From IMG/VR virus record IMGVR_UViG_3300042196_000102, positions 1-58,406 of that record: a DNA stretch of 58,406 nucleotides. One strand, 5' to 3'. The notes under the pieces were generated by a model. It had not been told where the DNA came from. It did no database searches and saw only the letters and a program-made list of their open reading frames with translations. This DNA comes from a virus. How positions within the stretch are numbered: the first letter of the stretch is position 1; the number at the start of each line of letters is the position of its first letter. Below are positions 3,483 through 52,073 of this stretch, piece by piece. The position numbers and the translations under genes are program-made.

Positions 3483-3753
3483 TATGGTTCAATGTTCTGT
3501 TCCGCGACTCCGCGACAGTTTCCGATCCATTGCCAAAGGTGCAACCTTCCACAGTACAGCCATATTTCCGGGTAAAGAAAAGCCGATGATTGTTGGAGCA
3601 ACAGCCTTGCTCAAAAGAAGTGTTTCTATCGTGGCAATGATACTTACCCTCTACATCATAGAAACTATGGACTCGTATGTCTGTCGTTTGCATGATACCG
3701 GCCATGTGTATCGTGCTCTTTTTGCCTTCACGCGCACACACCGGGCATTTCAT
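3457..3753 (-). CDS. Hypothetical Cys/His-rich protein on a low-GC islet
   Basis: 98 aa with CPVC, HCH, CC and C-x2-C motifs. It is visibly AT-richer than its flanks. ATGA overlap with the integrase stop. Confidence 0.55.
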   Translation of the reverse strand: MKCPVCAREGKKSTIHMAGIMQTTDIRVHSFYDVEGKYHCHDRNTSFEQGCCSNNHRLFFTRKYGCTVEGCTFGNGSETVAESRNRTLNHIEEKPIAS

Positions 3754-4436
3754 AAATCTACTCCCCTCATCGCCTTCTGGTAATCCCCCTCCACATCCGT
3801 CAGGGCAAGGTGCGTGTACACTTCAAGGCTCTTGCGGGAGGCGTGCCCAGTAATCAGTTGTATCTGGGCATCCTCCATCCCATTTCTCTTCAGCCATGTT
3901 ATCAGTTGGTGCCTGAACAGGTGAGGGTGTACCCCCTCAAACCCATTCTCTAGGGCGTACTTGGCCACGATCTGCCTCACCCGCCGGGTGGTGTAGGGCC
4001 TGCCCCACGCGCTCTCGAAAAGGTACTCCTTGGTCGGGTGGGCCTCCATGTATGCCTTCAGCAGCAGCCGGAACCCATCCTTGAAGAGCACGTATCGGTC
4101 CTTATCACCCTTGCCCTGCTCAATAAATATCCTATTGGCCCCTAAGTCCAAGTCTGACAACTTGATCTTGACAAATTCCCCAACCCTCACCCCCGTGTAG
4201 TACAGCAGTCGTAACATGATCTGATGCTTGAGGTCCCCGCCTTCGTCCATCTGATTGTAGAACCGCTTGAGGGCTTCGTCGGAGAGCAGCTTGGGGAGAT
4301 GGCGGGAGGGGCGTGGACGGCTCAGTCCCACCTCCTGCCGGACTTCCTTGCAGATATCCACGAAGGAGGGGTAGTCCAAGTGGTGCTGGCGGACCAACTT
4401 GGCGATGGCCCGGATGAGGAGGGAGCGGGAGGTCAC
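3750..4436 (-). CDS. Tyrosine recombinase / integrase (Xer-like, 228 aa)
   Basis: Catalytic motifs are present: YYTGVRVGE (Arg), HPHLFRH (H-x-x-R) and LITGHASRKSLEVYTHL (His and the nucleophilic Tyr). Confidence 0.9.
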   Translation of the reverse strand: MTSRSLLIRAIAKLVRQHHLDYPSFVDICKEVRQEVGLSRPRPSRHLPKLLSDEALKRFYNQMDEGGDLKHQIMLRLLYYTGVRVGEFVKIKLSDLDLGANRIFIEQGKGDKDRYVLFKDGFRLLLKAYMEAHPTKEYLFESAWGRPYTTRRVRQIVAKYALENGFEGVHPHLFRHQLITWLKRNGMEDAQIQLITGHASRKSLEVYTHLALTDVEGDYQKAMRGVDL

Positions 4437-5255: not shown

Positions 5256-5759
5256 TCAGTCTAGGGCCATCGCCAGCGCCACGGCCCCACCCAGGATCAA
5301 GGCCCCGGTGACCCAACCCGTCCCCAACCCCGCCGTCAGACTGCCCGGCTGTGGCAACGGGGTACCGGGGTAGGTGGCAGGTAGACCGGGTTGCCCCCCA
5401 AACATGGCCTTGGCCCCCAATACCGTGGCGGCGTAGGTGCGGGAAGAATCGGGAATGTTGCCCCGTGTGCAGGCGTCGGGGCCGGAGTTGTAGGCCATCA
5501 GCGCCAAGTCCTCCCGCCCGCAGATGGAGAGCATCTGGCGCAAGTACGTTACCCCGCCCCGGATGTTGCTGGCCAAGTCGGTTGGGTCCACGTTGAGGGA
5601 GGCGGCAGTCGAGGGCAGCAATTGGAATACCCCCACCTCCCCTGCCGTGCCCCGTGCCCCCTGGTTGAAGCTACTCTCGACTTGAGCGAGGGCGAGAGCA
5701 AGGGCGGGGTCTACGGCTTGCCGTTGGGCCTCCTGCGTAATCATCTCCTGGACTGTCAT
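5256..5759 (-). CDS. Lytic transglycosylase (SLT domain) with a C-terminal TM anchor
   Basis: AQVESSFNQ carries the catalytic Glu-Ser. GVFQLLP and LMAYNSGP motifs are present. The C-terminal hydrophobic helix is WVTGALILGGAVALAMAL. Confidence 0.85.
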   Translation of the reverse strand: MTVQEMITQEAQRQAVDPALALALAQVESSFNQGARGTAGEVGVFQLLPSTAASLNVDPTDLASNIRGGVTYLRQMLSICGREDLALMAYNSGPDACTRGNIPDSSRTYAATVLGAKAMFGGQPGLPATYPGTPLPQPGSLTAGLGTGWVTGALILGGAVALAMALD

Positions 5760-22017: not shown

Positions 22018-23358
22018 TTACTTGCCCGCCCACGCCCCCGCCGCCTCGCACACGTACAGGCTAGTCCCGGCCCCACCACCATGATTGAGGTAAATGGCCC
22101 CTAGGTTGGTGGCTGTACACAACCCCCCTGCTGGCACCCCAGTCCCTGTCAGGATCTCGGCCTCGCTGGAAAGCCGGATGTCGGCATTGTTGAATGAGTT
22201 CAACTCAGTGGCCCCGGAGCAGACGCCCATGGCGCAGGTGTAGTAAAGATCCAAGCCGTAGTTGAAACCGTGGCCGGCTCCAGTAGTCCGGTCGATCACC
22301 CGAAATCCGGCCCCAATCGGGTTGACCCGCACATTGTCCGTGGTCACGTAGGCGATCACGGCGGCATCGGCGGCGGTGTTGTTGTCGAAGATGGCCCCCA
22401 TGACAGCGCTTGGGTGGTTGGTGACGTTCTGCACTCCCACCCCGTCATTGAGCACACCCAGCACCCCCGTAGCAAATACTCCACCCGCTGCGGCGGTGGC
22501 AGGGGCCACAACATCCAGTTCCCCAACCACGCCATACATCTGCACGGCAGTTCCGGTAAGGTGGCTGGCTACGAAGTTGCCTCCAAACAGTTCCGTGACG
22601 CTGACCGAACCGGCCCCGGTTGTGGCAATACTTTGCGTGCCCACCAGGAACGTACCGGCGCCACCTGTTGAGGTAACCCGGAAGTCCGCCCCCTTGAGAC
22701 TAGTCAGGGTCCCGTAACTCCCTGTCCCTCGCGCCCCGATCACCTGTTGCGATCCCGTCAGCGTGGTCATTACCACCGGGGCTGCGGCGCTGCCGATGTT
22801 GACCGGCCCCGAGTTGCCGAACACGGAGGATCCGGTACCCCCCACGATATTAAGGAAGGGGAAAGCCGCATTGAGGTTGTCCACACTCAGGCTGATCTCG
22901 GCAGCCGCGCTGAAGGGGACGCCAGCCGGTGGCCAGTTGGTAGTGGCCCCGCCCTGATCACTGAAGGTTGTCCCGGCTTGGTTGGCCGCGACCACGCAAC
23001 TGGTGCATGTACCAGCTTGCGGGAATTGAGGTTGGGCTTGCCGTATCACGTAGTAGCCAGTTGCCGCCGACGCAGGTTGCCACGACAGCACCACGAACTG
23101 AGTCCCGCTCAAGTTAGCAATCCCGACCGTGTTGACCACATGCACAGGTCCAGCGGGCAGGCTCAACCCCGAGGGGTAGCGGGCTGCAATCCAGTAGTAC
23201 AAAGTGATGCTGCCTGGATTGCCGGACACCGAACCAGTAGCTCCTTTGACTAGCGCGGGGGCACCTGCGGTAAAAGTCACACTGGAGGCCCGTACCTGCT
23301 GGGCATGTAGGGCAACCGGAAATGTTGCCAGAATCAGTAATACCAAAAGCCGTTTCAT
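22018..23358 (-). CDS. Secreted FN3 plus Gly-rich beta-helix-like protein (spike candidate)
   Basis: 446 aa with signal peptide MKRLLVLLILATFPVALHAQQ. The FN3-like motif is VVLSWQPASAATGYYVIRQ. A long Gly/Thr/Val-rich repetitive region follows. Confidence 0.65.
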   Translation of the reverse strand: MKRLLVLLILATFPVALHAQQVRASSVTFTAGAPALVKGATGSVSGNPGSITLYYWIAARYPSGLSLPAGPVHVVNTVGIANLSGTQFVVLSWQPASAATGYYVIRQAQPQFPQAGTCTSCVVAANQAGTTFSDQGGATTNWPPAGVPFSAAAEISLSVDNLNAAFPFLNIVGGTGSSVFGNSGPVNIGSAAAPVVMTTLTGSQQVIGARGTGSYGTLTSLKGADFRVTSTGGAGTFLVGTQSIATTGAGSVSVTELFGGNFVASHLTGTAVQMYGVVGELDVVAPATAAAGGVFATGVLGVLNDGVGVQNVTNHPSAVMGAIFDNNTAADAAVIAYVTTDNVRVNPIGAGFRVIDRTTGAGHGFNYGLDLYYTCAMGVCSGATELNSFNNADIRLSSEAEILTGTGVPAGGLCTATNLGAIYLNHGGGAGTSLYVCEAAGAWAGK

Positions 23359-23714
23359 TTGCGTTCCTTCTCCTTCTCAGGGGGCTTGGCCGGTTCCTTC
23401 ACCGGCACCCCATTCGATTCCCCCTTGACAGGGGGGCACACAAACTGGAGGGCGTTGTTCAGTTGGCACCCTCCCTGATCGTACTTCACTTTCAACTCCT
23501 CCACCAGCTTGCCCAGTGCGTCCTGGGAGGCACGGAGGTTCAGTTGGGCCTGCAACAATTCCACGTTGTACTGCTGGATGGAGAGCTGGGCTTCCCGGAC
23601 CCGCAGGCGGTCCTCTGGCGCTAGGTCGATGGAAGTTTGCCCATGGAGACGGATTGCCGCCAAGACCAGTCCCAGGACAAGCCCAATCAACGCCAGTGTG
23701 CCCAATGCCCGCAT
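23355..23714 (-). CDS. Signal-anchored coiled-coil protein (119 aa)
   Basis: ATG 23714 gives MRALGTLALIGLVLGLVLAAI, followed by a coiled coil (QLSIQQYNVELLQAQLNLRASQ). The track start at 23879 overlaps the upstream gene. Confidence 0.55.
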   Translation of the reverse strand: MRALGTLALIGLVLGLVLAAIRLHGQTSIDLAPEDRLRVREAQLSIQQYNVELLQAQLNLRASQDALGKLVEELKVKYDQGGCQLNNALQFVCPPVKGESNGVPVKEPAKPPEKEKERK

Positions 23715-23718
23715 GGTC

Positions 23719-24153
23719 CTACCTTTGCGGCCTCGGTAAGTGATACCGCTTGGCCCCCCGGAACAGAATCTGGATCGTGTTCCCGGCATTCGACAAATCC
23801 TGGATCTCAATCCCCAACCTCGATCCAGCGGGCAGCAACAACTCTGGGAAGATGGGGTACGGGTAGGGCACGGCCCCACTCAGGAAGTTGCCAGACAGAA
23901 TGAACCCGCTTGACAAGTAGTACCCTTGCGAGTCCGAAAACCTGATACTGAACGCCCCGGTGTTCTGGGACAGAATGACGGCGCGGAGGGCAAAGTCACT
24001 GTCCACGTGGATTGGGACGGCCTGGTCCCTCAACTGTTGCAGGGCGGTGAGGGTGATGTCGTAGACGTAGGTGAAGTCCACATCAATGTATCCCTCGGGG
24101 AACTGCTCCGCCGCATTTACCCCTGCCAAGACCGGGGTGGCGAATGGATTCAT
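23719..24153 (-). CDS. Single jelly-roll-like protein (candidate penton/vertex protein)
   Basis: 144 aa. DSDFALRAV, YPIFPELLLPAGSRLGIEI and ILFRGAKRY match the motifs of each half of 21120-22001. Confidence 0.5.
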   Translation of the reverse strand: MNPFATPVLAGVNAAEQFPEGYIDVDFTYVYDITLTALQQLRDQAVPIHVDSDFALRAVILSQNTGAFSIRFSDSQGYYLSSGFILSGNFLSGAVPYPYPIFPELLLPAGSRLGIEIQDLSNAGNTIQILFRGAKRYHLPRPQR

Positions 24154-24321: not shown

Positions 24322-24981
24322 CTATTGGATGCCCCGAGCGTGGAGACCGTCGAGCAGGCACATCAGTGCCAGTCCGGTCCCCAAGGTTTGCCCACCAGCC
24401 GCCACCAGCGTGTAGGCATTCCCCGTCAACTGTGCGTAGAACTCCATCTGGTTCTCAATCACGATGGGGATGGCCAGCCGGTGCATGTGATCCCGGCCCG
24501 GCACCCCGTTGGTGTACAGGGCGATGGCGGGGATGGCCGCGATGGTGAAGGCGTTCAGCCCGCCGCCGGCGTTGTAGTGCCAGAGAGGGCCGGTGTTGTA
24601 GGCTTTCTGCCCCAGGAACAACTGGAAGGCAAAGCCCCAGAGGATGGCCAGGATATCGGCCAACACGATGTTTTCCTCCCAAGCCAGCCGGATGGCGAAG
24701 GCCGAGAAAGCCTCGGGAGCCGGGAGCCGGCGCGACTGGGTGAGGTTGGTCTGAGCGAGGGTCTTGCCACTTGCAGGCCCCACGTTGGTGAAGAAGGCGG
24801 TCGAGAGGGCAGTCACCTGGGCGCCCGCCGCCAGCGTCACAGTGTCATACAGAGGCTCGTGTTGGATGTCCATTTGCCCCTGGATGTACACTTGGCTCTG
24901 GAAGGCGTCCAGGATCATCACCTGCTGCGGCGTAAGCTGACTGGCCAGCGCCGCTCTCTGTGCTGCGTAATTCTGGGTCAT
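24322..24981 (-). CDS. Hypothetical structural protein (219 aa, probable jelly-roll-like family member)
   Basis: EAFSAFAIRLAW, IPIVIENQMEFYAQL and LLDGLHARGIQ echo the family motifs. It is followed by the 168-bp non-coding gap 24154-24321, which has GC-rich hairpin potential and a T5 run. Confidence 0.45.
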   Translation of the reverse strand: MTQNYAAQRAALASQLTPQQVMILDAFQSQVYIQGQMDIQHEPLYDTVTLAAGAQVTALSTAFFTNVGPASGKTLAQTNLTQSRRLPAPEAFSAFAIRLAWEENIVLADILAILWGFAFQLFLGQKAYNTGPLWHYNAGGGLNAFTIAAIPAIALYTNGVPGRDHMHRLAIPIVIENQMEFYAQLTGNAYTLVAAGGQTLGTGLALMCLLDGLHARGIQ

Positions 24982-25018: not shown

Positions 25019-26035
25019 CTAGAAGGCGGCACCGAAGGCGCGGCCAATGCCGCTGGCGTTCACTCGGGGCGCAGGGGGCATGGGCATACCCGCCATGATG
25101 GGGTTCTGTGGAACCGGGAATGAGGCATCCGCAAAGGCCCCCAACCCGCTGATCCCCAAAGCCCCCGCCACAGAAGGCAGGAATGCGTTGAGGGCGGTCG
25201 AGCCGGTCTGCATCAGGCCACCGAACAGCACTGCGTCTCCGAAATCCTTGTTGACCTTGCCCGCCACCCAGCCAGCGATGAACGCGGATACGCCGGTGGT
25301 GACCGTGCGCATCAGGTTCGAGCTGACCAGTTGGGACGGGAGCAAGGTGGGGATGAACTTGGCTGCGGCAACTCCGACCAAGCCCCCACCGATTGCGGAC
25401 AGGGTTTTGGTTGCGGAGACACCGACACCAAATGAGAGTTGCGGGTTGCGCCGGCGACGACGCCCGTACTGGACGTTGCGACGACGGGAAGTCCTGCGCC
25501 GATTGCGGCGACGTGGAGCCGTGACCACCACCCGAGTGGCGTTTCTCCGGCTCCGACGACGATGGCGCGGATTTGCTACTGCACGCTTTCTGCGTCTGTG
25601 TCGAGCCACGATTTTCTTTCTCCTTTTTGTTGGGTTCACGGCTCCCAGGGTTACGATCAGAGCCGGGTTGGTGCGCTTCCTTCTCTTCGGATTCTTCCGG
25701 GAGCGACGTTTGCGCGTTGCTTCGCCTGCACGCTTTTTGTTGTAGTCGTAAGATGCACGGATGGGATGGAAAATCCCCTCCTCATCGTAGAATCCTGCGG
25801 CCACATTCCTGCGGCGCCGGCTGCGGTGCCCCTTGGCAGCTATCTTGCGTTTGCGGCTGCCATACCGGGCGCTGTTTCGGCGTTTCAGCGCGGCTTTCTG
25901 CGCCTTGGTGCCAAAATGCTTGATCTGCTTGGCGGTCATGTTCCGGCGGCGGTGAGCGTTCCGTTTCCGGGCACGCTTCCTGGCCCGCTTCCGGGGGTTT
26001 GAGACCAGCCTGCGGGTTCGTATTACTGTTGCCAA
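25019..26035 (-). CDS. Arg/Lys-rich DNA-condensing-type protein with a Gly/Ala-rich hydrophobic C-terminal domain
   Basis: 338 aa from TTG 26035, 4 nt after an AAAGGAGGGG SD. The N-terminal ~200 aa is dominated by runs such as RKRARKRARKR, RSRRRRN and RRRRRNP. The C-terminal ~130 aa is Gly/Ala/Leu-rich and membrane-like. Confidence 0.7.
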   Translation of the reverse strand: MATVIRTRRLVSNPRKRARKRARKRNAHRRRNMTAKQIKHFGTKAQKAALKRRNSARYGSRKRKIAAKGHRSRRRRNVAAGFYDEEGIFHPIRASYDYNKKRAGEATRKRRSRKNPKRRKRTNPALIVTLGAVNPTKRRKKIVARHRRRKRAVANPRHRRRSRRNATRVVVTAPRRRNRRRTSRRRNVQYGRRRRRNPQLSFGVGVSATKTLSAIGGGLVGVAAAKFIPTLLPSQLVSSNLMRTVTTGVSAFIAGWVAGKVNKDFGDAVLFGGLMQTGSTALNAFLPSVAGALGISGLGAFADASFPVPQNPIMAGMPMPPAPRVNASGIGRAFGAAF

Positions 26036-26249
26036 TTTGCCCCTCCTTTCAGGGGATTCTCCCCCGGCCTTTTTGGGGTCCAGGGTCAGCCAAGAAAGCG
26101 AAAGGGCCGCCGGAAGACCCTTTGAACCCACGCCCGTGAGTTTACTTGGGTCTTTCCAGCGGCCCTTTGGCCAAAGCCGCTTTCCTGGTTGTGCTGCTAA
26201 TCCCCTTATCCTACCCCGTCGAGTAGGGCGGGGGAACCTTCAAAACTCG

Positions 26250-26513
26250 TTACACCTCTGCCTCCCCCGTCTTCCCTTTGGCCTTCCCCTTCCGCGTGGA
26301 GACAAGCTCCTCCACGATCTGCTCTTGGCGCTCGGTGAGGGGCTGGTCCGCTACGGGAGGGGCAAGGTCCGGGTGGGCCTCGTACAATTCCCCCAGGGTT
26401 GGGTACACCGGAGACCAGCAGTGGCACTGGACCGCCGACTCGTTGAGCCGGAAGCCGACTCGGTAGCCGCCGGCGGGGCCGGGGAGAGGTTGGATGGACT
26501 TTATCATAGCCAT
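26250..26513 (-). CDS. Hypothetical protein (87 aa)
   Basis: It contains LTERQEQIVEELV, near-identical to the LuxR-type regulator's N terminus, but lacks the HTH. Confidence 0.5.
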   Translation of the reverse strand: MAMIKSIQPLPGPAGGYRVGFRLNESAVQCHCWSPVYPTLGELYEAHPDLAPPVADQPLTERQEQIVEELVSTRKGKAKGKTGEAEV

Positions 26514-26584
26514 GAGTGCGTTGCCTCCTGTAGTATAATTGCTGATGGGGATAGGCTGGAGTCGCCCTCCAAGCTGAATGCCCG

Positions 26585-27322
26585 ATGGCTCCGAACATTG
26601 GCTTCCCCCCTAGTAAATTCGGGTGTCACACGGAGGTGATGATGTACACGAAAACCTGCCTCTGGTGTTCTACGGCTTTCACAACAGTCAGAAAGAAGAG
26701 GATCTACTGCTCCAAACGATGCAGCTTGGTCCACAGAAACACGAAACCAAGGGATGTGGTCTATGTAACAAAACCTTGTGCCTACTGTGGCAAGTTGTTT
26801 GAGAGCCGGAGATGCCTGCATAAAATTACCTGCTCGTTGAGTTGTCGCACATCCTACAATAACACGGTTCCGGTGGAAACTAGATTGCTGTCGAGAATAC
26901 AAATTGACCAGTCCACCGGCTGCTGGAACTGGCAGGGCCACTTGAGTGTACTTGGGTACGGCAAGATTTCGCGTGATGGTAGACTCCAGACCGTGCATAG
27001 AGTTTCCTACGAGATAAAGTACGGAAAGATCCCATCCGGCCTTGAACCAAACCACAAGTGCAGGAACAGGGCATGTGTCAACCCCGATCACATTGAAGCT
27101 GTCACGCATCAACTCAACATCTGGTATGCTAGGGGAATCACAAGCACGCACTGGGGTTGCGGCCATGAAAAGACGAGTCCAAACTCCAGGACGACTAGCA
27201 GTGGCTCTATCGTATGTGGGATTTGCGCCAGAACAAAAGAGAGAGAGAGATACCGCAAGGACCCCGAGAAGTACAAGGCCCGAGTGGCGGCAGTATACTA
27301 CAGAAAAAAGGCTAGTCGATAA
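26585..27322 (+). CDS. HNH homing endonuclease (HNH_3-like) with N-terminal Zn fingers
   Basis: 245 aa on the opposite strand, at lower GC. The pattern is CWNWQGHLSVLGYGKISRDGRLQTVHRVSYE...HKCRNRACVNPDHIEAVTHQLN, plus CLWC...CSKRC and CAYC...CSLSC. Confidence 0.85.
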   Translation: MAPNIGFPPSKFGCHTEVMMYTKTCLWCSTAFTTVRKKRIYCSKRCSLVHRNTKPRDVVYVTKPCAYCGKLFESRRCLHKITCSLSCRTSYNNTVPVETRLLSRIQIDQSTGCWNWQGHLSVLGYGKISRDGRLQTVHRVSYEIKYGKIPSGLEPNHKCRNRACVNPDHIEAVTHQLNIWYARGITSTHWGCGHEKTSPNSRTTSSGSIVCGICARTKERERYRKDPEKYKARVAAVYYRKKASR

Positions 27323-28808
27323 GGCCTGGTGATTCTGCACGATATACCCCTCCTGTGATGCTGAGCAGCTTGCTTCTCGGGCTATAAAGTAACAACGGTT
27401 GATAACCAGATTCTTCCCCAAGCTTGTGCACGTAGTCACTCAACTCAAAGTTGTCAAACTTCTTTCGGGCTTGGTACACAAGCGATGTTAACACGCCCAA
27501 CACCATTGAGTCCTTGATGAACTTGGGACTATCCATCTTAAGATCCCGCAGACTTACCTCCTGATCGCCTCCCTCCACATAGAGTTGCCGCCCGTCCTCG
27601 GAGGCGGCCAAGTACGGGGCGTCCTTGTTGAACCGGATCGTGGCGTCCAGGCCGGAGAGGGTGGCCACCTTCAGCTCCACGAGGGTCCCGAGGGTGGCTA
27701 GGTACTCGTGCTCATGGACCTCGGTTTCCACGGTGGTGACGTGCTCGGCTGGGGCGCCGGTGAAGCCTTCGACAAGGGTGGCAGCAGAGGACTCGGGGTT
27801 GCGCTTCACACTCGCCGCGCCTCTACGAAATGCCTTTTCCCAGTCCGAAAGCCCATAACCACTGGGTGTGGGTCGAGTCCGACCCCAGCCAGCAGTAAGG
27901 TCTGCAGTCTCTCTGTCGTACCATTCAGCATACGCAACATTGATTGGACCAACACCACCACTTAGACGCCAACGCTTGCCAGCCTCGAAGGGTATGTCAA
28001 TGTTGCTGTCGTCGGGGTTGGTCCTCTTCCGCGCTTCCCTTTCCCGCGTCTCGGCGGGATTCCACCTCACCACCTTCGCGGGTGGCACATCCTCCAAGTA
28101 CTGATCCCCGCTGGTGCCGGGCCGGATGTCCACCATGGTCATCCTAACCGTGCCCACCGGAGTTACTTGGGACCCCATGCTGCTCACACTCACCCGGTAT
28201 CCCAACTTACGGAGGGTGGAGGCACGGGCCTTGATGTCCGGGTCTCCTGTTTCGTAGGACTCCTGAATCCAGTCCCGGCCACGGGTTTGGAGGGCAGCGG
28301 GATTCTCTACAGGATTGCCAGTTGGTTTGTAGAGAATATCCCGGTGACCGTAACCAGCAGGACCCAGACTGCGGATTCTGAGTTGTGGATGCCCCTTCTC
28401 AGCCAACTCAAAAAGCCTATTCCAGTCGGAAGCCCATAGGATCACGTTGTCGGGTGTAACATGGATCTCAATACCATCCACTTCGCGGACGTACTGTGGA
28501 CGTGGATTCCTTCTCCCCGGCACCACCGTAGCGTACTCCTTGTACCGTGGGGACTTCTGCCTGAACCTCCAGTAAGTCGCCCCCTTGTCCACCTTCCCAC
28601 TCACAAACCCGTGGTCCCGGAGCCACTTCTGGGCCTCCCCGATACCCCACTTCACCTTGTCAAAGATCACTGACTGGACTTCGGACACCCGCCTGCCCGC
28701 CTTGCGTGCGATCCCCAGCACAAACTTGATGCCCTCGTCCGGGTTGGCAAGCTGGGACACCCAGACCTCAGTGTCAACATGGTGGCATAGGCTTGACCTA
28801 CGCGGCAT
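27312..28808 (-). CDS. Large hypothetical virion-block protein (498 aa)
   Basis: ATG 28808 gives MPRRSSLCHHV. It looks modular, with segments separated by basic-x-N-P linkers (RRNPRP, RWNPAE, RTNPDD, KRNPES). No ATPase or portal motifs seen. Confidence 0.7.
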   Translation of the reverse strand: MPRRSSLCHHVDTEVWVSQLANPDEGIKFVLGIARKAGRRVSEVQSVIFDKVKWGIGEAQKWLRDHGFVSGKVDKGATYWRFRQKSPRYKEYATVVPGRRNPRPQYVREVDGIEIHVTPDNVILWASDWNRLFELAEKGHPQLRIRSLGPAGYGHRDILYKPTGNPVENPAALQTRGRDWIQESYETGDPDIKARASTLRKLGYRVSVSSMGSQVTPVGTVRMTMVDIRPGTSGDQYLEDVPPAKVVRWNPAETREREARKRTNPDDSNIDIPFEAGKRWRLSGGVGPINVAYAEWYDRETADLTAGWGRTRPTPSGYGLSDWEKAFRRGAASVKRNPESSAATLVEGFTGAPAEHVTTVETEVHEHEYLATLGTLVELKVATLSGLDATIRFNKDAPYLAASEDGRQLYVEGGDQEVSLRDLKMDSPKFIKDSMVLGVLTSLVYQARKKFDNFELSDYVHKLGEESGYQPLLLYSPRSKLLSITGGVYRAESPGLID

Positions 28809-29442
28809 TGTGAAGCCTCCCGGCAACCAGTGACTTGTCAAACAGCCTCTTACTTGCGTTAGTGTAGAAGTCGTACCTACCCGTCCCACTACGGTCCTCG
28901 GCATATTTGAATGTGGCCGCGTATCCGCTCTCCCGTAACATACGTTCAACATACTCTGCTACTACCTGGTCCATGTCGGTGGTGGCAGGCAACCTGAACT
29001 TGTGACTATAGTTCACACCCCTAAACTCCGGGTTCGCCTTCCCCTTCCCCCACTCCCCAATGAACCTCTTGGCCTCCACCGGCGTGTCAAACCGGCTCTC
29101 CGGGTCAATCGAGGGCACCATCCACCCCCCAGCAGAGGGTAGGATGTCGTGCCCTTTGTGGCGGGTGGGCCGACCACGCGGGACCCCGGCGGCAGAGGAG
29201 GAGGCGGGGGGCCGGGTGACTCCGTGGCCACCCAGCATACCGAACAGGGACTCGGAGCGGGCACGAGCGAGGCCAAACGGGTTACCCTTGCCTCTCCTTT
29301 TGCGCCTTCGCCCCAACACCCCCGCAGCCAGCGCCAACTCCTCCTCCAGCAATCCAGGGCCGGGGGTGAGCAGCAGGGCGGCAAGGTCGGACTGGTTGGC
29401 CTTGAATTGCACCCTGACACGTCTTGTGGCTGTCCTGCTCAT
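28798..29442 (-). CDS. Hypothetical basic protein (214 aa)
   Basis: ATG 29442 overlaps the upstream TGA (ATGA). It contains RRRKRRGKGNPFG and KGKANPEF. Confidence 0.6.
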   Translation of the reverse strand: MSRTATRRVRVQFKANQSDLAALLLTPGPGLLEEELALAAGVLGRRRKRRGKGNPFGLARARSESLFGMLGGHGVTRPPASSSAAGVPRGRPTRHKGHDILPSAGGWMVPSIDPESRFDTPVEAKRFIGEWGKGKANPEFRGVNYSHKFRLPATTDMDQVVAEYVERMLRESGYAATFKYAEDRSGTGRYDFYTNASKRLFDKSLVAGRLHNAA

Positions 29443-29711
29443 TTCCGCATCCCAAACACCACCAAGGCCCCCACCCCCAACCCAGCCACGATCAGCCAGG
29501 TCGCCGGGGCTTGGCAGTACCCGCCCGCCTTCAAGTCCTCGTACCACTCGCACGGACTCCCCCCAACAATCGCTGGAGCCGACTCCCGTATCACAATCGT
29601 CCGGGGTTCGGTCCACATCGGGGGCCACATTGGGGGTGGGGGTGGCGGTGGCGGAGGGGGAGGAGGGGGCGGGTCCTCCCCAATCCCACGCAACCTTGAT
29701 CCGATCATCAT
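29439..29711 (-). CDS. Tail-anchored membrane protein with a Pro14 run (CxWYED family)
   Basis: 90 aa. It has 14 consecutive Pro, then SPCEWYEDLKAGGYC, then the TM helix WLIVAGLGVGALVVFG followed by MRK. Confidence 0.65.
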   Translation of the reverse strand: MMIGSRLRGIGEDPPPPPPPPPPPPPPMWPPMWTEPRTIVIRESAPAIVGGSPCEWYEDLKAGGYCQAPATWLIVAGLGVGALVVFGMRK

Positions 29712-33489: not shown

Positions 33490-33803
33490 TCGTCTACCTC
33501 TTCCTCATCATCTTGTGAATCATCAAAGTCATCCCAACCGCAGCGGCAATCATACTCCCCACAAACATCACATTTGGTCGTCGTGCTGCTGTCCACCATC
33601 ACCACTTGCCCCTCCGTCTGCACTCCACACAGCGGGTGCGGTACTTTGGTGTCTTGCTTGTTGGCAACTGCTTTCGATGGCCACATTCCAGTACTAGACC
33701 AGTCGCCGTGCCATGCGTGATGCCACAACCGTGTTGACTGATGATGAATCGCCCCTGAATCTTCCGAAAGGGGGAGGGGGGTATGTACAACCTCACTTGC
33801 CAC
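33486..33803 (-). CDS. Small Cys-rich/acidic protein(s); reading frame uncertain
   Basis: One reading is a single 105-aa ORF. The other is a 65-aa Zn-ribbon ORF (33599-33796) followed by a 37-aa acidic Cys-rich ORF coupled by TGATG at 33599. My third-position GC count (60% versus 62%) does not discriminate between them. Confidence 0.35.
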   Translation of the reverse strand: MASEVVHTPLPLSEDSGAIHHQSTRLWHHAWHGDWSSTGMWPSKAVANKQDTKVPHPLCGVQTEGQVVMVDSSTTTKCDVCGEYDCRCGWDDFDDSQDDEEEVDE

Positions 33804-34635
33804 CTCCGATCAGGAATGCCCCGGCAACTAGGGCAATGGCCAGCAGGAGGGTCCCACTTCCAGCCCCACCAAACACACCTCCTGTCAGGGAGTCAATCAA
33901 CTTCCCTGTGGCTGCGTCTACCAGTGGGTCCGGCTTCACATTGGGGTCTTGGACTATGGGGGTCCGATAACGAGCAAACCAGTCCCACACTCCGCCCGCC
34001 TGCCGTTCGCTGATACACCTTTCGCCTGGGTCCCCCATCTCCGGGATGCCACAGTTGTCCACCACGTACTGCCAACCCGCATCGAAGTTGTTGAGGGCCT
34101 GGACTTGGGAGGAGACGGTGTGGGGGCCAGCCATATAGCCTGCGAGATTCTGCTGGAGGAGAGGTTCTACCTTGTCCACAATCTGCGTGGTGGCCACCTT
34201 CTGCCTAGGACCCTTGCGGCCAAACAGAGCCATCAACCCGAGGGTGACTCCAGCAACCACGGCCCCGATGATGGGGATGGCGGCGGCAGTGAGGCCAAGG
34301 AAAGTGCCCGTGCCTGCTGCGGCCCCGGCTCCGGCGGTCGAGGTGGCGATACCAGTGGTGAGGACCCCCCCGATGATTTGGGGAGTGGAGAGGGCGATGG
34401 AGGAACCGGTCTGCCCTAGGCCAACCAGGGAGACGGCCTCCTCAGCCTCAAACCCGCTCAGCCCATACTCCCGCATCAAGGACCACTCTTTGAGGGTGTA
34501 GTAGCGCTTGGGGGAGTAGTGACGGGGGAGGGGGGAGGGTTGGCCGATGGAGAGAGCGGACGGGGGGGCAGGGACGGAGGGGTGGGTGGGAGGGGACCAG
34601 GGGGAGGTGTAGACGTAAGAAGCCGGATGCATCAC
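33793..34635 (-). CDS. Multi-pass / tail-anchored membrane protein (280 aa)
   Basis: It has a central Gly/Ala-rich hydrophobic block. The C-terminal helix LLLAIALVAGAFLI is followed by GGGK. Confidence 0.65.
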   Translation of the reverse strand: MMHPASYVYTSPWSPPTHPSVPAPPSALSIGQPSPLPRHYSPKRYYTLKEWSLMREYGLSGFEAEEAVSLVGLGQTGSSIALSTPQIIGGVLTTGIATSTAGAGAAAGTGTFLGLTAAAIPIIGAVVAGVTLGLMALFGRKGPRQKVATTQIVDKVEPLLQQNLAGYMAGPHTVSSQVQALNNFDAGWQYVVDNCGIPEMGDPGERCISERQAGGVWDWFARYRTPIVQDPNVKPDPLVDAATGKLIDSLTGGVFGGAGSGTLLLAIALVAGAFLIGGGK

Positions 34636-35371: not shown

Positions 35372-35833
35372 CTACTTCTTCCCCCTTGCCAGCATCATCA
35401 CTAGAAAGAACGCCCCGCCCGCCAGCAGGATCATCCCCACCCCCGGACTGGCTACTCCGCTCACTGCCGCCGTCCCAGCCCCCGCCGTCAGGATGGAGGG
35501 CTGGGTCCCCCCAGGTTGCCGATACGTGATCGTCCCGCCGGTTGGGGAGGTCTGCACATACGTCCCCTTGGGGTACGTTACTTGGAGCAGGAGTTGTTCG
35601 CCGGTCTTGATGAGGCCCTCCCACCACGAGGGGGTAGTGGCGGTGACCGGCATCCCTGGAATCGGGGCCATCCAAGAGGGGTCCAAGGTGGGGGGCATAG
35701 GCAATTGGCCAACCCCACGCAACCGGACGGGGCGCTTCCACTGGCCCATCCCCGGCACGGCTGGCCCCTCGCCTGCTGCCACCGGATACGCCAATCCTGG
35801 ACTTAACTGGATATTGCAAGCTGGAACCTGCAC
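35372..35833 (-). CDS. Tail-anchored membrane protein (153 aa)
   Basis: GTG start. The C-terminal helix MILLAGGAFFLVMML is followed by ARGKK. Confidence 0.6.
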   Translation of the reverse strand: MQVPACNIQLSPGLAYPVAAGEGPAVPGMGQWKRPVRLRGVGQLPMPPTLDPSWMAPIPGMPVTATTPSWWEGLIKTGEQLLLQVTYPKGTYVQTSPTGGTITYRQPGGTQPSILTAGAGTAAVSGVASPGVGMILLAGGAFFLVMMLARGKK

Positions 35834-35834
35834 G

Positions 35835-36554
35835 TTACACCCACCCCCTTCCTTTTTGCCGTCCCCAGATCAGCCATACCACCAGTACCGCTCCCAGTAA
35901 CATGGGCCAGATCGGGGCGAAGATCGTCCACTCCTCAAGCCGGCCCAACCCAGTGGCCTCCCAGCCCGGATACATCCCATGGCTTACATCCATCGGAATC
36001 CGGCCCCGCCCCTCGGGGTACGCGGCAAGGTAGACGTGGGAGAACCTGTCCGGGTACTGGTGGTCCGCCGCGATGGTCACGAAGGTGGACTTGATCCCGG
36101 CGGCTTTGAGGAGTGCGGCGGTATACATGGCGAAGTCATCACAGTCCCCCACCTTGCTGCACTCGCCTTGCGCACACAGCACGCTCATGTCCTTGGGTCG
36201 GATCAACACTTCCACGATGGGCAACCCGTACTGTGGGGCGAGGGGTATCGCGATCTGGGAATCCTGCTGGAACTTGAGCCGCTGCTTGACAAACCAGAAA
36301 ATCCCGTGGATGGGGTCCTGGCCGGGGGCGACGGCCTGCCCAAGATCACCCTGGATCTCGGGGGAGGCCCAATCCTCCCGCACGTAGCGCCCCATCAACG
36401 CGATTGTGTCCTGGACCTGCGTATCCGGGTCGTCGGAGGTGATCTGGCCAACGTGCCGCAAGGCTTCCATCGGGTCCTTGGGGCCTACTTTCGACGGTTC
36501 ATAGTCCTCTGTCGTCCTGGGGTACAGTACGTCGTGTACCAGTATGCACCACAA
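35835..36554 (-). CDS. Transglutaminase-like cysteine peptidase with a C-terminal TM anchor
   Basis: The Cys-His-Asp core reads GDCDDFAMYTAALLKAAGIK ... FSHVYLAAY ... IPMDVSHG. The C-terminal helix is WPMLLGAVLVVWLIW. The start is uncertain: TTG 36554 or ATG 36470. Confidence 0.7.
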   Translation of the reverse strand: MWCILVHDVLYPRTTEDYEPSKVGPKDPMEALRHVGQITSDDPDTQVQDTIALMGRYVREDWASPEIQGDLGQAVAPGQDPIHGIFWFVKQRLKFQQDSQIAIPLAPQYGLPIVEVLIRPKDMSVLCAQGECSKVGDCDDFAMYTAALLKAAGIKSTFVTIAADHQYPDRFSHVYLAAYPEGRGRIPMDVSHGMYPGWEATGLGRLEEWTIFAPIWPMLLGAVLVVWLIWGRQKGRGWV

Positions 36555-36668: not shown

Positions 36669-38597
36669 TTGTATCGCAGATCGACGCAAGCGCCTCCACG
36701 CCCACCACCAGGAAAGAAAGGATGCTACGAAGTGCCAACAACCATAAATGTGAAGCCGTTACCCTTGCAGGACGGTGCCGGTGCAGACTTGGGGGACATT
36801 GCAGCGGACCTAGGGGGTACGCAGACTACCGGGCCGATGGAGCCGCCGGCCAAAAGCCCCGGCCCGCGCAGGAGAAAACGTCAAGCCGGCCCACAGCAGC
36901 CCACCCCCGCCCCCGACCCCTCAGGGCCGACTGCACCCACCGAGACTACAACAACGTTGGGCGAGGTCTGGAGGCGCACCTCGATCCAGCGGGCAGCAAC
37001 AACTCTTGCATCGACCTGGGCAAGCGACCCGCCCGTCCCGTACTTGCCCCCGCCGGTCAAGTTCTCCCTCAACCCGGAGGACTTCTTCCGCTACTGGCAC
37101 GCAACCGACACCCAGTTCCCGCACCGCCTCCTCTGCTACTTGTACCGGGTGTGGCCCAAGATCGACCGTACCAAGGAGGGATTGGTCGCAGACGCCAGCA
37201 AGTACATCGACAAGATTGATGGGGCGCTCCCGCCCGAGATTGGGGACTGGCGCCAAGAAATCTTCCACCGCTACGGGAGCGGCGCCTACAAGTTCGTGCT
37301 GACGGACGGCCTCAAGAGCAAGGCGGTGTGCCAGACGGTTGTGCCAAGCAAGGAGTTGGACGACCTTGAGGAATACCCGCCCCACCTCAACTATGACGAG
37401 TTGATTATGGACCACCCCGACAACCAATCTTACGTCCGGTGGCTCAACGTGAAAGGGCTACTACAACAGGAGAGTGACATGCAGCAAGGTGAAGCGATGA
37501 AGGAAATGACTGGCCTGGTGAGAGATATGGTGCTCGACAAGGCCAAACAGCAGCCGCAACAACCCGTCCCCGAGAGCCCCAATGCCACGGCCACGGCGGA
37601 GGCGATCAAGGCGACGGCCAAGGCAGTGGCGGAGGCGGCGACAATGGGCAATGAGATCATGAAGAACGCCTTCAACCAAGTGGCCCAGGCGACAGCCGAG
37701 CAGTCCAACCCCAAGACGATGCTGGAGATCATCACAGCTGTCAGTGGCTTGGTGAATCGCCCACAGGCGGACGGAGAGGGGGGCATGTTGGTGAAGCTGC
37801 TCTTGGAACGGGAGGCCACCACACGGGAGGAGATGGTCAAGCTGAACAGCAACTTGTTCCTGGTGCAGACGGACCAGATCAGGAAGTTGCAGGAGGACTT
37901 GCAGGCGATCCGGGCCAACCCACAAGGGCTGACCGTGGCGGCGGGGGCGGGGACGGCAACACCCAACGGCAACCCCCTCCTGGACGCAATCCGGGCGTAC
38001 AAGGAGTTGAAGGCTGAGATTGCAGAGGAAGTGGGCGACGAGGGGGATAGTGTGCGGTCTCCAAAAGTACCGGTCTGGTTGGGGCTGGCCGAGACGACCA
38101 TGAAGAATCTGCCGGTTGTTGCGGCCTACATCGTGCAGGCTATCATAGCAGCCAAGGCACAGCCGGGCCAGATGCAGGCAGCACAGATGCCGGTGGCGGC
38201 AGCACTACCGGCGGGCGCAGGCGCAGGCGAGGCAACCATGGCAGGCGGAGAAGACGTGAGACAGCAAGCAGAAACCAAGAACTGGATGGCGTTCCTCAAG
38301 GATATTGAGGGGCCAATAATCCGGTACATGAGTGAAGGGAGGAGCGGGGACGAGTTTGCCTCCGCGATCGTCGAGTACCGTGGCTTGCTGGACTACCGCG
38401 CAGTCAAGAGTTGTGGGGCCGACACGATCAAGACCGTCCTCAACGCCTACCCCCCGATTGCTCAGGTCGTCCAGAGAGTGCCGCAGCAGTTCGATCAATT
38501 CCTAGATGAGTTCATGCGGGCCGAGGAGATTTGGGCGGCACAGGAGGCCGAGGACCGAGGGGAGGGGGAAGCACCAACGGGACGGCCCGTGGCGTAG
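36669..38597 (+). CDS. Large hypothetical protein (up to 642 aa), the only long plus-strand gene
   Basis: Uninterrupted 1.9-kb ORF. The N terminus is Pro-rich and basic, and the middle is Ala/Gln-rich and coiled-coil-like. The start codon is uncertain (TTG 36669, or an internal GTG/ATG). No family recognised. Confidence 0.7.
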   Translation: MYRRSTQAPPRPPPGKKGCYEVPTTINVKPLPLQDGAGADLGDIAADLGGTQTTGPMEPPAKSPGPRRRKRQAGPQQPTPAPDPSGPTAPTETTTTLGEVWRRTSIQRAATTLASTWASDPPVPYLPPPVKFSLNPEDFFRYWHATDTQFPHRLLCYLYRVWPKIDRTKEGLVADASKYIDKIDGALPPEIGDWRQEIFHRYGSGAYKFVLTDGLKSKAVCQTVVPSKELDDLEEYPPHLNYDELIMDHPDNQSYVRWLNVKGLLQQESDMQQGEAMKEMTGLVRDMVLDKAKQQPQQPVPESPNATATAEAIKATAKAVAEAATMGNEIMKNAFNQVAQATAEQSNPKTMLEIITAVSGLVNRPQADGEGGMLVKLLLEREATTREEMVKLNSNLFLVQTDQIRKLQEDLQAIRANPQGLTVAAGAGTATPNGNPLLDAIRAYKELKAEIAEEVGDEGDSVRSPKVPVWLGLAETTMKNLPVVAAYIVQAIIAAKAQPGQMQAAQMPVAAALPAGAGAGEATMAGGEDVRQQAETKNWMAFLKDIEGPIIRYMSEGRSGDEFASAIVEYRGLLDYRAVKSCGADTIKTVLNAYPPIAQVVQRVPQQFDQFLDEFMRAEEIWAAQEAEDRGEGEAPTGRPVA

Positions 38598-44269: not shown

Positions 44270-44576
44270 CTTTCCTCCTCTTGATTGGCCGAGCTAGTTT
44301 TCCTGTGTCCAGACGCCAAGCCATCCTTGCCAGCACATCTCCATGGCACGGCTGGGGACTGCACCAGCATCCGAGCACCTTGCCCCCCAGATATGCCACA
44401 TGCTCCCTAATCCAAACAGCGTTGGGGTCATTGCTGGTTGTGACCCACTGCTCAAACAACTCAATGATTCGCTCGCGGCTACCGTCCACCCCAATTCTGA
44501 ACGGATTGCCCCAAGGCCCCGGCCTGCCGATGTACACGTCGTAGGCTTCCCTTTTGCAATGGACCACCCGCGTCAT
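44250..44576 (-). CDS. DUF4326-family protein
   Basis: 108 aa from ATG 44576 (ATGA overlap with the polymerase stop). The pattern is VHCKREAYDVYIGRPGPWGNPF ... LGCWCSPQPCHGDVL. Confidence 0.7.
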   Translation of the reverse strand: MTRVVHCKREAYDVYIGRPGPWGNPFRIGVDGSRERIIELFEQWVTTSNDPNAVWIREHVAYLGGKVLGCWCSPQPCHGDVLARMAWRLDTGKLARPIKRRKDEQSIG

Positions 44577-45874
44577 TTCTCCAGCGCCCCCCAACTCTGC
44601 GCCGCCCCCCCACTCGACTCGACCGGCACACTGAGGGGCACCGCCGTCTCCATGATCGCCCCCGCCATCCCCAGGAAGTCATCCACAATCGGGTCACTGC
44701 ACTCAAACAGCACCTCGTCGTGGATCTGGAGCAGGGGCAGGCAGGTTTCGGAAGGGTACCGCCCAAAGTACTCCACCAGCCCCCTCAACTCGTACATGAC
44801 CACCTTGATAAGCCCCGCCGCCCCTGCGCTGATGGGGTGGTTGGCCGCTTCCCTCAGCCCACGGTTGGCCACGCCCCGGTGTACACTCTTCGCCTCGGGC
44901 ACAAACCGGTGGCGCCCGAACTCGTCCCAGTTCAGCATGTACCGGCGGGCACGGGAGAAGTACTGCTCAATGAGGTCCTGCACTCCCGAGTAAAGGGCGA
45001 ACCAGCCATTGATGTAAGCCTGGCACTCCTCCTCCGTCTTCACGATCCCTTCAGCCAGCAGGCGCAACTGGAGGCCCTTGGCGGTGATGAGATACAGGAC
45101 AGCGAACCCAAGATGCTTGGCCGCGTACCTTTCGTCGGGGGTCACCTGGTCCTCGGGCTTGCTCCCCAACCCCGCAGCAGTGGCTTGGTGGATGTCCCGC
45201 CCGTCGAAGAACACCTGCACTAGTTTGGGATCTTGGGAGAGGTGGGCGACCTCGCGCATTTCGATTTGGGATAGATCCCTGCCCACAATCTTGTGTCCGG
45301 GGGATGCAATGAACCCAGCCCGGATCTCCCGACCCAATTCTGTACGGATGGGTATGTTTTGCAGGTTGGGGTCCTCACTAGCCAGCCTGCCGTTGCGGGC
45401 CGTGGTGGACTTCAACCGGGTCCTCAGCCTCCCATCCCGCCCCACCATCATGGGCAGCTTGACCACAAACACGTTCTCCAGTGTGTTCAACTCCCGGTAC
45501 TCCAGGATGTCCCCCACCACAGAGTGTTGCCCCCTCAGCCCCTCCAGGATGTCCTGGTCTGTGGACTCCCGGCTCCCGGTTGGGGTAAGGCGCATGAGGC
45601 CATGCCCGAGGCCCAACTCATCAAACAGGAGGGCGGCCACCTGGTCCCCCGACACCGGGTTGAGGTCCCGTCCCACCTGTGCCCGTATTCTCCCTTGGCA
45701 CTCCCCCTTGAGTTGCCGGATGTGGACCCCCAACTGGGCGAAGTGGGCCTGGTCCACCAAGATGCCGTTGTGGTTCATGGACTCGATGAGGGGCAGGCAG
45801 GCGTGGTCCAGGCGGAGGACATTGGCGGGGGAGGGGGCGGATAGGGGGAAGCGGCAACCGTTGGAGAGGCGCAT
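44573..45874 (-). CDS. Family A DNA polymerase, polymerase domain only (split PolA, C-terminal part)
   Basis: 433 aa. The motifs are DLSQIEMREVAH (motif A), RYAAKHLGFAVLY (motif B) and LQIHDEVLFE (motif C). RLASEDPNLQNIP is also present. Confidence 0.9.
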   Translation of the reverse strand: MRLSNGCRFPLSAPSPANVLRLDHACLPLIESMNHNGILVDQAHFAQLGVHIRQLKGECQGRIRAQVGRDLNPVSGDQVAALLFDELGLGHGLMRLTPTGSRESTDQDILEGLRGQHSVVGDILEYRELNTLENVFVVKLPMMVGRDGRLRTRLKSTTARNGRLASEDPNLQNIPIRTELGREIRAGFIASPGHKIVGRDLSQIEMREVAHLSQDPKLVQVFFDGRDIHQATAAGLGSKPEDQVTPDERYAAKHLGFAVLYLITAKGLQLRLLAEGIVKTEEECQAYINGWFALYSGVQDLIEQYFSRARRYMLNWDEFGRHRFVPEAKSVHRGVANRGLREAANHPISAGAAGLIKVVMYELRGLVEYFGRYPSETCLPLLQIHDEVLFECSDPIVDDFLGMAGAIMETAVPLSVPVESSGGAAQSWGALEK

Positions 45875-51517: not shown

Positions 51518-52065
51518 GGCACGTCGTCGGCGTGGTACTCCCTGACCAGCATGAGCAGCAATCCCAAGTAGTTGTACCCTCTCCCATCCGATACCCCCCA
51601 GAACGTGTCCCCCCTCTCGTTCACCTCCACCAACTCCCTCTCCCCTGTCTCCTCCAACCTCCTTGCCAAGTACGGGTCCTCAAACTTCACCCCGAGCAAG
51701 GCGTGCATCAACTGGACTTTGTTCTCTTCCCACCCCTTAGCCAACTCCACCGTGCGCCCCAGCTTCTTAGCCTCTCCAGGTTTCTCGCAGGCCCAGATCC
51801 TGGTGGCCTCCTCCCCCCTCACGCACTTGGAGGCTTGGAAGGCATGCTCCAGGGTCCGCCACTGGCGCCCGCACCACTCGAAGTTACGGAGGGGGTAGAA
51901 GTTGGAGAGGAAGGCCCAGGAGTCACGGAAGGGGCCAATGATACCGGGGTGGAGAGGGTAGAGCGGAGGGAGGTTGGAGGCAATAATTGGGGGTCGATCC
52001 GGGGGTTGGTCTTGAGGTATATCATCCCCCTGTTGACGGGCCTCGTTGAAGATTCCGTAGCCCAT
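51511..52065 (-). CDS. NADAR (YbiA/DUF1768) family protein
   Basis: 184 aa from ATG 52065. The hallmark is FLSNFYPLRNFEWCGRQWRTLEHAFQASK. Confidence 0.8.
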   Translation of the reverse strand: MGYGIFNEARQQGDDIPQDQPPDRPPIIASNLPPLYPLHPGIIGPFRDSWAFLSNFYPLRNFEWCGRQWRTLEHAFQASKCVRGEEATRIWACEKPGEAKKLGRTVELAKGWEENKVQLMHALLGVKFEDPYLARRLEETGERELVEVNERGDTFWGVSDGRGYNYLGLLLMLVREYHADDVPW

Positions 52066-52073
52066 TAGTTTGC

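Follow-up and report, generated by a model that had tools for sequence, protein, structure and literature searches.

The minus-strand open reading frame (ORF) at 25019-26035 of the 58,406-nt virus genome analysed here (the window) is a real, conserved gene, and it encodes an arginine-rich protein whose composition and two-part architecture are likewise established. An extremely basic N-terminal part of about 200 residues is followed by a C-terminal domain rich in small residues. The virus record is a complete genome with direct terminal repeats, and the Arg-rich protein may well be a virion-internal DNA-condensing and tethering protein of an uncultivated, tailless bacterial virus with a jelly-roll capsid. 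We infer the DNA binding, virion location, anchoring partner and assembly pathway of the protein from its composition, from synteny and from analogy. The features on which the analysis is based are collected in Table 1.

Table 1. Features of the Arg-rich gene, its protein and its neighbours (positions in the window)
Feature	Position	Strand	Remarks
CDS of the Arg-rich protein, 338 aa	25019..26035	-	stop codon 25019-25021; more than 340 homologs, best E=1.4e-126; 100% self-match to the genome record
Shine-Dalgarno sequence AAGGAGG	26042..26048	-	6-nt spacer to the TTG start (26035-26033); read directly from the sequence
Terminator-like hairpin	26101..26123	-	upstream of the TTG start, within the unsupported longer GTG ORF
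Conserved N-terminal module, residues 1-60	25856..26035	-	MAxVxRxRRLxNP, basic helix, then MTxKQIKxFGTKxQKAALK helix-turn-helix; from alignments and AlphaFold2 (AF2)
Lineage-specific insert, residues 61-100, including the FYDEEGIFHPIRASYDY hairpin	25736..25855	-	column gap fraction 0.77-0.82
Arg-rich, Asn-Pro-punctuated arm, residues 101-198, predicted disordered	25442..25735	-	pLDDT 48-56
NP-ALIVTLGAV-NP, residues 123-135, hydrophobic and strand-like	25631..25669	-	most conserved stretch of the arm, flanked by two near-invariant NP
Three predicted C-domain helices, residues 208-231, 240-261 and 263-292	25160..25414	-	AF2 pLDDT 73-84; small-residue-rich, moderately hydrophobic
C-terminal tail, residues 293-338	25022..25159	-	conserved F-x-V-P-Q-N-P; P309 invariant, N311 and P312 nearly so
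219-aa single-jelly-roll capsid-like protein (model), downstream neighbour	24322..24981	-	37-nt gap from the Arg-rich stop to its ATG
Upstream NP-enriched gene	27312..28952	-	likely true start ATG at 28808; variable N-part, conserved 160-aa C-domain right after NP
HNH endonuclease gene between the two NP-rich genes	26585..27322	+	Pfam HNH_3 2.3e-12, phrog_826 1.8e-28; no part of the system

Minus-strand translation of the interval yields 338 residues with no internal stop. An earlier note on this DNA had proposed a TTG start supported by a Shine-Dalgarno sequence, and this assignment was confirmed by the position of the AAGGAGG element and by the aligned homologs, which begin at M-A-x-V-x-R-x-R-R-L-x-N-P and thereby match the TTG start. 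Some automatic gene calls take Met33 as the start, and the conserved N-terminus is lost that way. A longer ORF, opening with a GTG at 26131, was rejected, as the 32 codons it would add show no conservation and include the terminator-like hairpin (26123-26101).

All runs of arginine that had been quoted from the first ~200 residues are found in the translation. Residues 1-200 contain 29.5% Arg and 10.5% Lys with only 2.5% Asp plus Glu, corresponding to a net charge of +75, and residues 1-198 carry the same net charge with an Arg plus Lys content of 40%. Residues 201-338 are composed of 15.9% Ala, 15.2% Gly, 9.4% Val, 8.7% Ser and 8.7% Leu, with a net charge of +4. The full-length protein has a mass of 37.6 kDa and a pI of 12, and it is the sole product of the genome with a net charge above +25, the second-highest ORF reaching +23.

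A word-seeded HMMER search recovered the homologs counted in Table 1, all of them unnamed and the best sharing 70% identity; many are located on contigs of 54-85 kb. Family members are approximately 250-370 aa long. A profile of the C-domain only (A3) matched 1,078 clusters at 50% identity (E<=1e-3) among 1.84 billion representatives. Among the 150 profile matches listed, the C-domain is located at the C-terminal end of the protein, and fused forms of greater length were looked for without success, which is weak evidence. Across 111 aligned homologs, the N-domain has an Arg plus Lys fraction of 0.41 +/- 0.03 and 0.3% Asp plus Glu at a length that varies between 96 and 212 aa, whereas the C-domain has a median length of 144 aa. 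Family members have net charges between +45 and +93 (median +68). Thus, the basic composition is held while the length of the arm drifts, as would be expected if a nucleic-acid binder that works through charge were linked to a folded domain.

The Arg-rich protein is without a Pfam, PHROG, PDB-sequence or fold relative. Pfam gave no family at E<=0.1 and PHROGs no match, and a tblastn search against 50,697 phage records was equally negative. The family profile run against all PDB sequences returned noise (E>1), with no chain of 6oj0 matched. With the AF2 model as query, no significant match was obtained by Foldseek against PDB and BFVD or by a wide VIA search; the noise-level fold matches were topped by holins and helical 3-TM proteins. 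The ESM Atlas yielded unnamed viral clusters only, with no match to the first 100 residues. Homology to ribosomal, RNA-binding or tail proteins, set beforehand as counting against a core protein, was absent in Pfam, PHROGs, PDB, phage tblastn, Foldseek PDB and BFVD. A scan of species-representative genomes for prophage copies or hosts found only two MAG contigs, and because these come from unrelated phyla, no host can be inferred.

An AF2 model was built from the 111-sequence alignment (mean pLDDT 64.5), with low confidence for about half of the protein. In the N-terminal part, helices were predicted for residues 15-29, 35-41 and 44-76, with pLDDT values of 91-95 over residues 31-60, and N13, P14, F41 and G42 of this module are invariant or nearly so in the 111 sequences. 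The following insert differs between lineages: its FHPIR motif is present in 6 of the 111 homologs, and its hairpin (residues 81-91) is modelled with strands at residues 81-83 and 89-91 at a pLDDT of about 79. The composition and disorder analysis proposed in the earlier note confirmed the extreme basicity of the N-domain and predicted residues ~100-200, the arm, to be disordered, with pLDDT of about 50. Within the arm, NP dipeptides start at residues 115, 123, 134, 155 and 197. Mean column conservation reaches 0.70 over residues 121-140, and the distant members L010, L011 and L016 keep the NP-flanked strand as NPGEIISLTLGNP. In the C-domain, G221, K226, A251, G272, G273, S279 and P309 are invariant or nearly so in the 111 sequences, and the final residue is Phe, Tyr or Trp in 85 of the 111.

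The C-terminal part had been described as both Gly/Ala-rich and membrane-like. The first description holds, but the second is weakened. Hydrophobicity was assessed as a crude sum of the Hessa biological scale over windows of 19 residues. The best window of the C-domain scored +4.2 kcal/mol and the family medians of the three helices lie between +4.7 and +5.1 kcal/mol, whereas clear transmembrane anchors of the same genome (e.g. 23355-23879, 29439-29711, 33793-34635 and 35372-35833) scored from -2.5 to +1.5 kcal/mol. The DNA polymerase and helicase of the genome, which are soluble enzymes, scored from +5.5 to +8.5 kcal/mol. The C-domain helices also carry the invariant Lys together with conserved Gln and Asn. 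Classical membrane insertion of the C-domain is not supported, since its windows are far less hydrophobic than the transmembrane anchors of the genome. Peripheral or oligomeric membrane association and a protein-docking or capsid-binding bundle are equally possible.

The marginally hydrophobic, amphitropic-looking helices lead to the question whether the protein could act in entry. The C-terminal helices, once released, would then be membrane-active, as in adenovirus VI, nodavirus gamma and reovirus mu1N, and the polyarginine arm would escort the DNA through the host envelope. A tailless virus needs another delivery device, and the holins and 3-TM proteins at the top of the non-significant fold matches agree with such a role. 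However, the protein has no similarity to known penetration proteins, pilot proteins are usually of low copy number and less basic, and nothing specific favours this function beyond composition. An entry or pilot protein is therefore considered quite improbable.

The genomic context points to a structural role. Synteny is fixed across 14 IMG/VR loci, with the NP-rich gene, an optional HNH endonuclease and the Arg-rich gene followed by genes for proteins of 219, 144 and 320 aa and by further genes past these. The endonuclease insertion is found in L004 and L007 and the other loci are without it. The earlier note had placed the Arg-rich gene next to jelly-roll-like genes, in agreement with the model of its downstream neighbour. 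This 219-aa protein, modelled from a 40-sequence alignment with a pLDDT of 80.8 and a pTM of 0.70, forms a beta sandwich, and the top five matches to it in VIA are without exception capsid proteins from icosahedral viruses that contain an internal membrane: SPV1 (8.2), HHIV-2 (7.8), HCIV-1 (7.7), SH1 (7.4) and P23-77 VP17 (7.2). The neighbour is thus modelled as a single jelly roll of the viral capsid type. For the C-domain of the upstream NP-rich protein, no relative was found in PDB sequences or PHROGs.

A function outside the particle was also considered, in which the protein would be a factor for takeover of the host nucleoid, an RNA-binding factor or a regulator that by chance lies in the late operon. 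Arg-rich motifs are known in RNA-binding and antitermination proteins. On the other hand, the gene lies between structural genes without exception in the 14 loci, its Shine-Dalgarno sequence is strong and the gap to the capsid-like gene is short (37 nt). Furthermore, the protein resembles no ribosomal or RNA-binding family and has a conserved hydrophobic C-domain. A non-structural role appears highly improbable.

The same location inside the capsid gene block would suit a cement protein of the capsid underside or a scaffold that recruits the membrane. The arm would in this case bind anionic lipids or acidic capsid patches, conserved hydrophobic mini-strands (NPALIVTLGAVNP, TRVVVTAP) would dock onto the jelly rolls, and DNA neutralisation would be secondary. 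Conservation of the arm peaks in the short NP-flanked hydrophobic strand, which suggests contact with another protein; the C-domain is not transmembrane-like, and in SPV1 the shell is connected to the membrane by sub-capsomer proteins (PMC8459092). However, with acidic residues all but missing across the family, the net charge of +45 to +93 is far higher than docking to lipids or proteins would require and is what nucleic-acid condensers typically show, and the length of the arm drifts freely, unlike that of molecular rulers. Such a cement or scaffold function is regarded as rather unlikely.

A six-frame Pfam search of the genome detected no Terminase_6N, FtsK_SpoIIIE, DUF87/HerA, Phage_portal or Phage_capsid domain, with positive controls. 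Walker A motifs occur only in VapE-like and AAA_24 replication-type proteins. At the sensitivity of Pfam the genome has no recognisable packaging ATPase, as judged with many large ORFs (e.g. 642 aa, 36669-38597) lacking an assignment. The remaining genome encodes a family A DNA polymerase, a UDG-exonuclease fusion, a DinG-type helicase, ERCC4, a methylase, NADAR, an integrase and an SLT lytic transglycosylase. The Pfam and PHROG domain scans covered the Arg-rich protein and about 50 other ORFs.

For the favoured role as a DNA-condensing and tethering protein, the following mechanism is proposed. The N-terminal ~200 residues would form an ordered helical module and, after it, flexible Arg runs split by Asn-Pro hinges. 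The Arg arm would bind and neutralise the 58-kb dsDNA with no sequence specificity; at +79 per protein, the 116,812 phosphates would be half neutralised by about 740 copies and fully by about 1,480. The C-terminal 140 residues, with three helices and an aromatic-ended tail, may hold the arms, with the DNA bound to them, against the inside of the particle, where the target could be an internal membrane or the underside of the jelly-roll shell. The conserved arm strand may act together with the C-domain in fixing the nucleoprotein. Shell and membrane would assemble around the condensed nucleoprotein in an SPV1-like manner, instead of DNA being pumped into a preformed capsid; this pathway is plausible because no packaging motor is recognisable. 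As a caveat to the core role, Arg-rich regions can bind RNA or anionic lipids too.

A further property of the family is its punctuation by NP dipeptides, which are its most conserved positions. Members contain 7.8 NP on average, as compared with 1.07 after shuffling, a seven-fold enrichment; 51% of all Asn precede Pro, 38% of all Pro come after Asn, and the context of the dipeptide is RRRxx-NP-RRR. Asn is also the commonest residue ending Arg/Lys runs. N123, N134, P135 and P198 are invariant in the 111 sequences, and N13, P14, P124, N197, N311 and P312 are at least 90% conserved. In the present genome the only NP-enriched ORFs are the Arg-rich gene (7 versus 1.1 expected) and the upstream gene at 27312-28952 (7 versus 0.9), homologs of which have up to 10 NP versus about 1 expected. 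NP enrichment was surveyed in 912 six-frame ORFs of at least 80 aa from 13 related loci, with at least 4 NP and a Poisson p<1e-3 as the cut-off. Positives were confined to the Arg-rich homologs, the homologs of the upstream gene and one gene further upstream in L006 and L007. In the upstream family, NP is always found immediately before the conserved 160-aa C-terminal domain, and in the Arg-rich protein the N197-P198 pair marks the junction between arm and C-domain.

Two readings of this punctuation were weighed. NP followed by Asp/Glu or by a basic helix is the standard pattern of a helix N-cap or hinge. The AF2 helix of residues 15-29 starts right after N13-P14, and the dipeptides are favoured to be N-cap or hinge punctuation rather than processing sites. 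A shared processing or recognition site is also possible, and sequence alone cannot decide between this and a hinge. Asn-Pro bonds are known to undergo self-cleavage at N42|P43 of reovirus mu1 and in the NPTH motif of FlhB/YscU. The conserved Asn-Pro that the Arg-rich family has in common with these Asn peptide lyases is necessary for such chemistry but far from sufficient.

If the NP were sites cut by a viral protease or by Asn self-cleavage, the protein would be a maturation precursor from which the arm is released as mu- or protamine-like peptides and the C-domain is freed. This possibility overlaps the core and tether model, to which it adds one maturation step. It would account for the excess of NP over shuffled sequences, for the frequency of Asn before Pro, for the invariant or near-invariant NP columns, for the NP exactly at the arm/C-domain junction and ahead of the upstream C-domain, and for the restriction of the enrichment to the Arg-rich family and one or two upstream genes among the 13 loci, and it has the self-cleavage precedents of reovirus mu1 and FlhB/YscU. 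The tail-anchored protein at 35835-36554, which has a weak match to Transglut_core (papain fold; E=3.3e-4) that does not reach the gathering score, could be such a protease. Against these points, X-Pro bonds are not cut by most proteases, and an Asn lyase depends on a folded active site, hardly to be expected 5-9 times along a disordered arm; most NP sites of the protein do lie within sequence predicted by AF2 to be disordered. The helix that begins after N13-P14 matches the textbook N-cap or hinge instead, and no clear protease was identified, as the sub-threshold Transglut_core match apart, no protease domain was detected in the about 50 ORFs scanned against Pfam. A natural gene split at the NP junction was not found either. 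Database entries starting at the RRNP junction were examined as candidates for such splits and rejected, since the same internal Met is present inside full-length relatives, and they look like truncations by gene callers or contig ends. Taken together, a maturation precursor is a minor possibility. The broader proposal of a virus-specific maturation code is similarly doubtful. According to it, the Arg-rich protein and one or two upstream precursors would be cut, or cut themselves, at N|P, with release of protamine-like peptides and a membrane-active three-helix domain. If it were true, NP maturation would give tailless bacterial viruses an adenovirus-like core maturation by different chemistry, and NP cleavage together with the lack of a packaging motor would imply condensation-driven encapsidation in phages. 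Whatever its function, the invariant NP punctuation is an unexplained sequence code common to neighbouring structural genes.

To our knowledge, all well-studied dsDNA phages, both the tailed ones and the tailless PRD1/PM2 type, are thought to hold essentially naked DNA that is pumped in by an ATPase. Genomes condensed by proteins are found in eukaryotic viruses (adenovirus, baculovirus, ascovirus) and in a few archaeal viruses such as SPV1. A genome-condensing core protein in bacterial viruses would thus probably constitute a new architecture, a role not yet described for any phage. The earlier note had known of no bacterial-virus equivalent, and no protein of this kind was found in the databases or the literature searched. 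The family of 1,078 clusters sits in complete genomes of ~55-60 kb that have single-jelly-roll genes and no recognisable motor. Should the Arg-rich protein prove to be a core protein, nucleoprotein condensation would be the means of encapsidation in a widespread group of bacterial viruses from soil and freshwater, and this would link bacterial viruses to the portoglobovirus-like state that has been proposed as ancestral (PMC8812541). Owing to its small size the protein can be expressed, which makes the core idea directly testable.

The likeness to adenovirus core proteins that had been proposed at the outset is one of composition. Adenovirus pVII and pX/mu are strongly Arg-rich dsDNA condensers, encoded by late structural genes and located in a particle with a jelly-roll capsid. 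The Arg-rich protein shares their composition but has neither a sequence relationship (Pfam, PDB) nor a fold relationship (Foldseek) to them, and it has a hydrophobic C-terminal domain, which the adenovirus proteins are without. In adenovirus, adenain (clan CE) cuts at (M/I/L)XGG|X and an ATPase packages the DNA, whereas here the punctuation is by Asn-Pro, and the about 50 ORFs scanned against Pfam yielded no adenain-like protease. The second likeness proposed, to the DNA-binding proteins of microviruses, holds in composition but not in homology, for which PHROGs and the phage tblastn search gave no indication. The J protein of Microviridae and the corresponding gokushovirus peptide are basic and packaged with the genome, but they are single-domain peptides of 20-40 aa from ssDNA phages.

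[quoted passage not shown] SPV1 (Portogloboviridae) is an archaeal virus of 20 kb, and its VP1 is likened to the Arg-rich protein by description only; portogloboviruses also carry mini-CRISPR arrays (PMC8459092). In ascovirus P64, baculovirus P6.9 and other protamine-like proteins, a basic repeat domain condenses the genomic DNA. All are proteins of eukaryotic viruses and show no sequence relationship to the Arg-rich protein, and none of them has the NP punctuation or a three-helix hydrophobic domain. P64, a cationic protein of the virion that is unusually large, condenses DNA and, like the protein described here, has two domains (PMC6163548). Their order differs, as the basic domain of P64 is C-terminal and joined to a Cys-containing N-domain, whereas the basic part of the Arg-rich protein is N-terminal.

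The protein encoded upstream of the 338-aa Arg-rich protein is, besides the Arg-rich protein itself, the only one in the genome that is enriched in Asn-Pro (NP) dipeptides, with seven occurrences versus 0.9 expected. Its N-terminal part is variable in both length and sequence. The C-terminal domain of 160 residues, which begins directly after an NP, is conserved and follows the pattern FHG...QLY.EGGDQ...Y.T.K...Y.H..GEE...P.L.YD...L.I.GG.Y. Searches against Pfam, PHROG and PDB sequences found no relatives of this protein.

Features of the virus genome considered here (positions on the window)
Feature	Position	Strand	Remark
Tyrosine integrase gene	3750-4436	-	
SLT lytic transglycosylase gene	5256-5759	-	
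TM/coiled-coil-like protein	23355-23879	-	between jelly-roll genes
Optional insert of the Arg-rich protein, residues 61-100	25736-25855	-	acidic beta-hairpin motif
HNH endonuclease gene	26585-27322	+	between the two NP-rich structural genes, opposite strand
NP-enriched gene upstream of the Arg-rich protein	27312-28952	-	likely start at 28808
Tail-anchored 239-aa protein	35835-36554	-	weak Transglut_core match
Largest ORF, 642 aa	36669-38597	+	strand opposite to nearly all other genes
UDG domain fused to 3'-5' exonuclease domain	47171-48592	-	
NADAR-domain protein	51511-52131	-	

The Arg-rich half of the 338-aa protein contains a single acidic patch, the optional insert, whose motif GFYDEEGxFHPIRASxDY is present in 6 of the 111 aligned family members. 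Public gene calls (ESM Atlas entry, P0060) begin this family at the internal Met33 and thereby lose the conserved N-terminal MAxVxRxRRLxNP-basic helix within 25937-26035 (minus strand); the probable reason is that the gene truly begins with a TTG codon in this genome.

The inserted HNH endonuclease gene is accompanied by a stretch of lower GC content (26001-28000). Among the related loci compared with the window, only L004 and L007 carry this gene, which therefore probably encodes a homing endonuclease and is mobile. The adjoining 87-aa ORF (26250-26513) is conserved in none of these loci.

A family A polymerase gene (44573-45874) is separate from the gene for the UDG/exonuclease fusion. The largest ORF lies in a stretch with an AT skew of +0.18 and gave no Pfam or PHROG match and no Walker A motif; as it is left without an assignment, it qualifies the claim that the genome is devoid of packaging machinery.

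Despite the integrase and the transglycosylase, a scan of genome contigs covering 185,579 species, with one genome per species, recovered the family of the Arg-rich protein in only two MAG contigs, from Lysinibacter and Methylophilaceae bins of unrelated phyla. These are probably mis-binned viral contigs, and the host can therefore not be deduced from them.

The Transglut_core match (transglutaminase-like, papain-fold) of the tail-anchored protein is weak (E=3.3e-4; 21.3 bits, where the cut-off is 23); the protein is a candidate protease or cell-wall amidase. The protein encoded between the jelly-roll genes carries the most hydrophobic TM helix of the genome at its N terminus (dG19 -2.5), has in addition a coiled-coil-like segment as well as a Lys/Glu/Pro tail, and is a candidate for a linker from membrane to shell.
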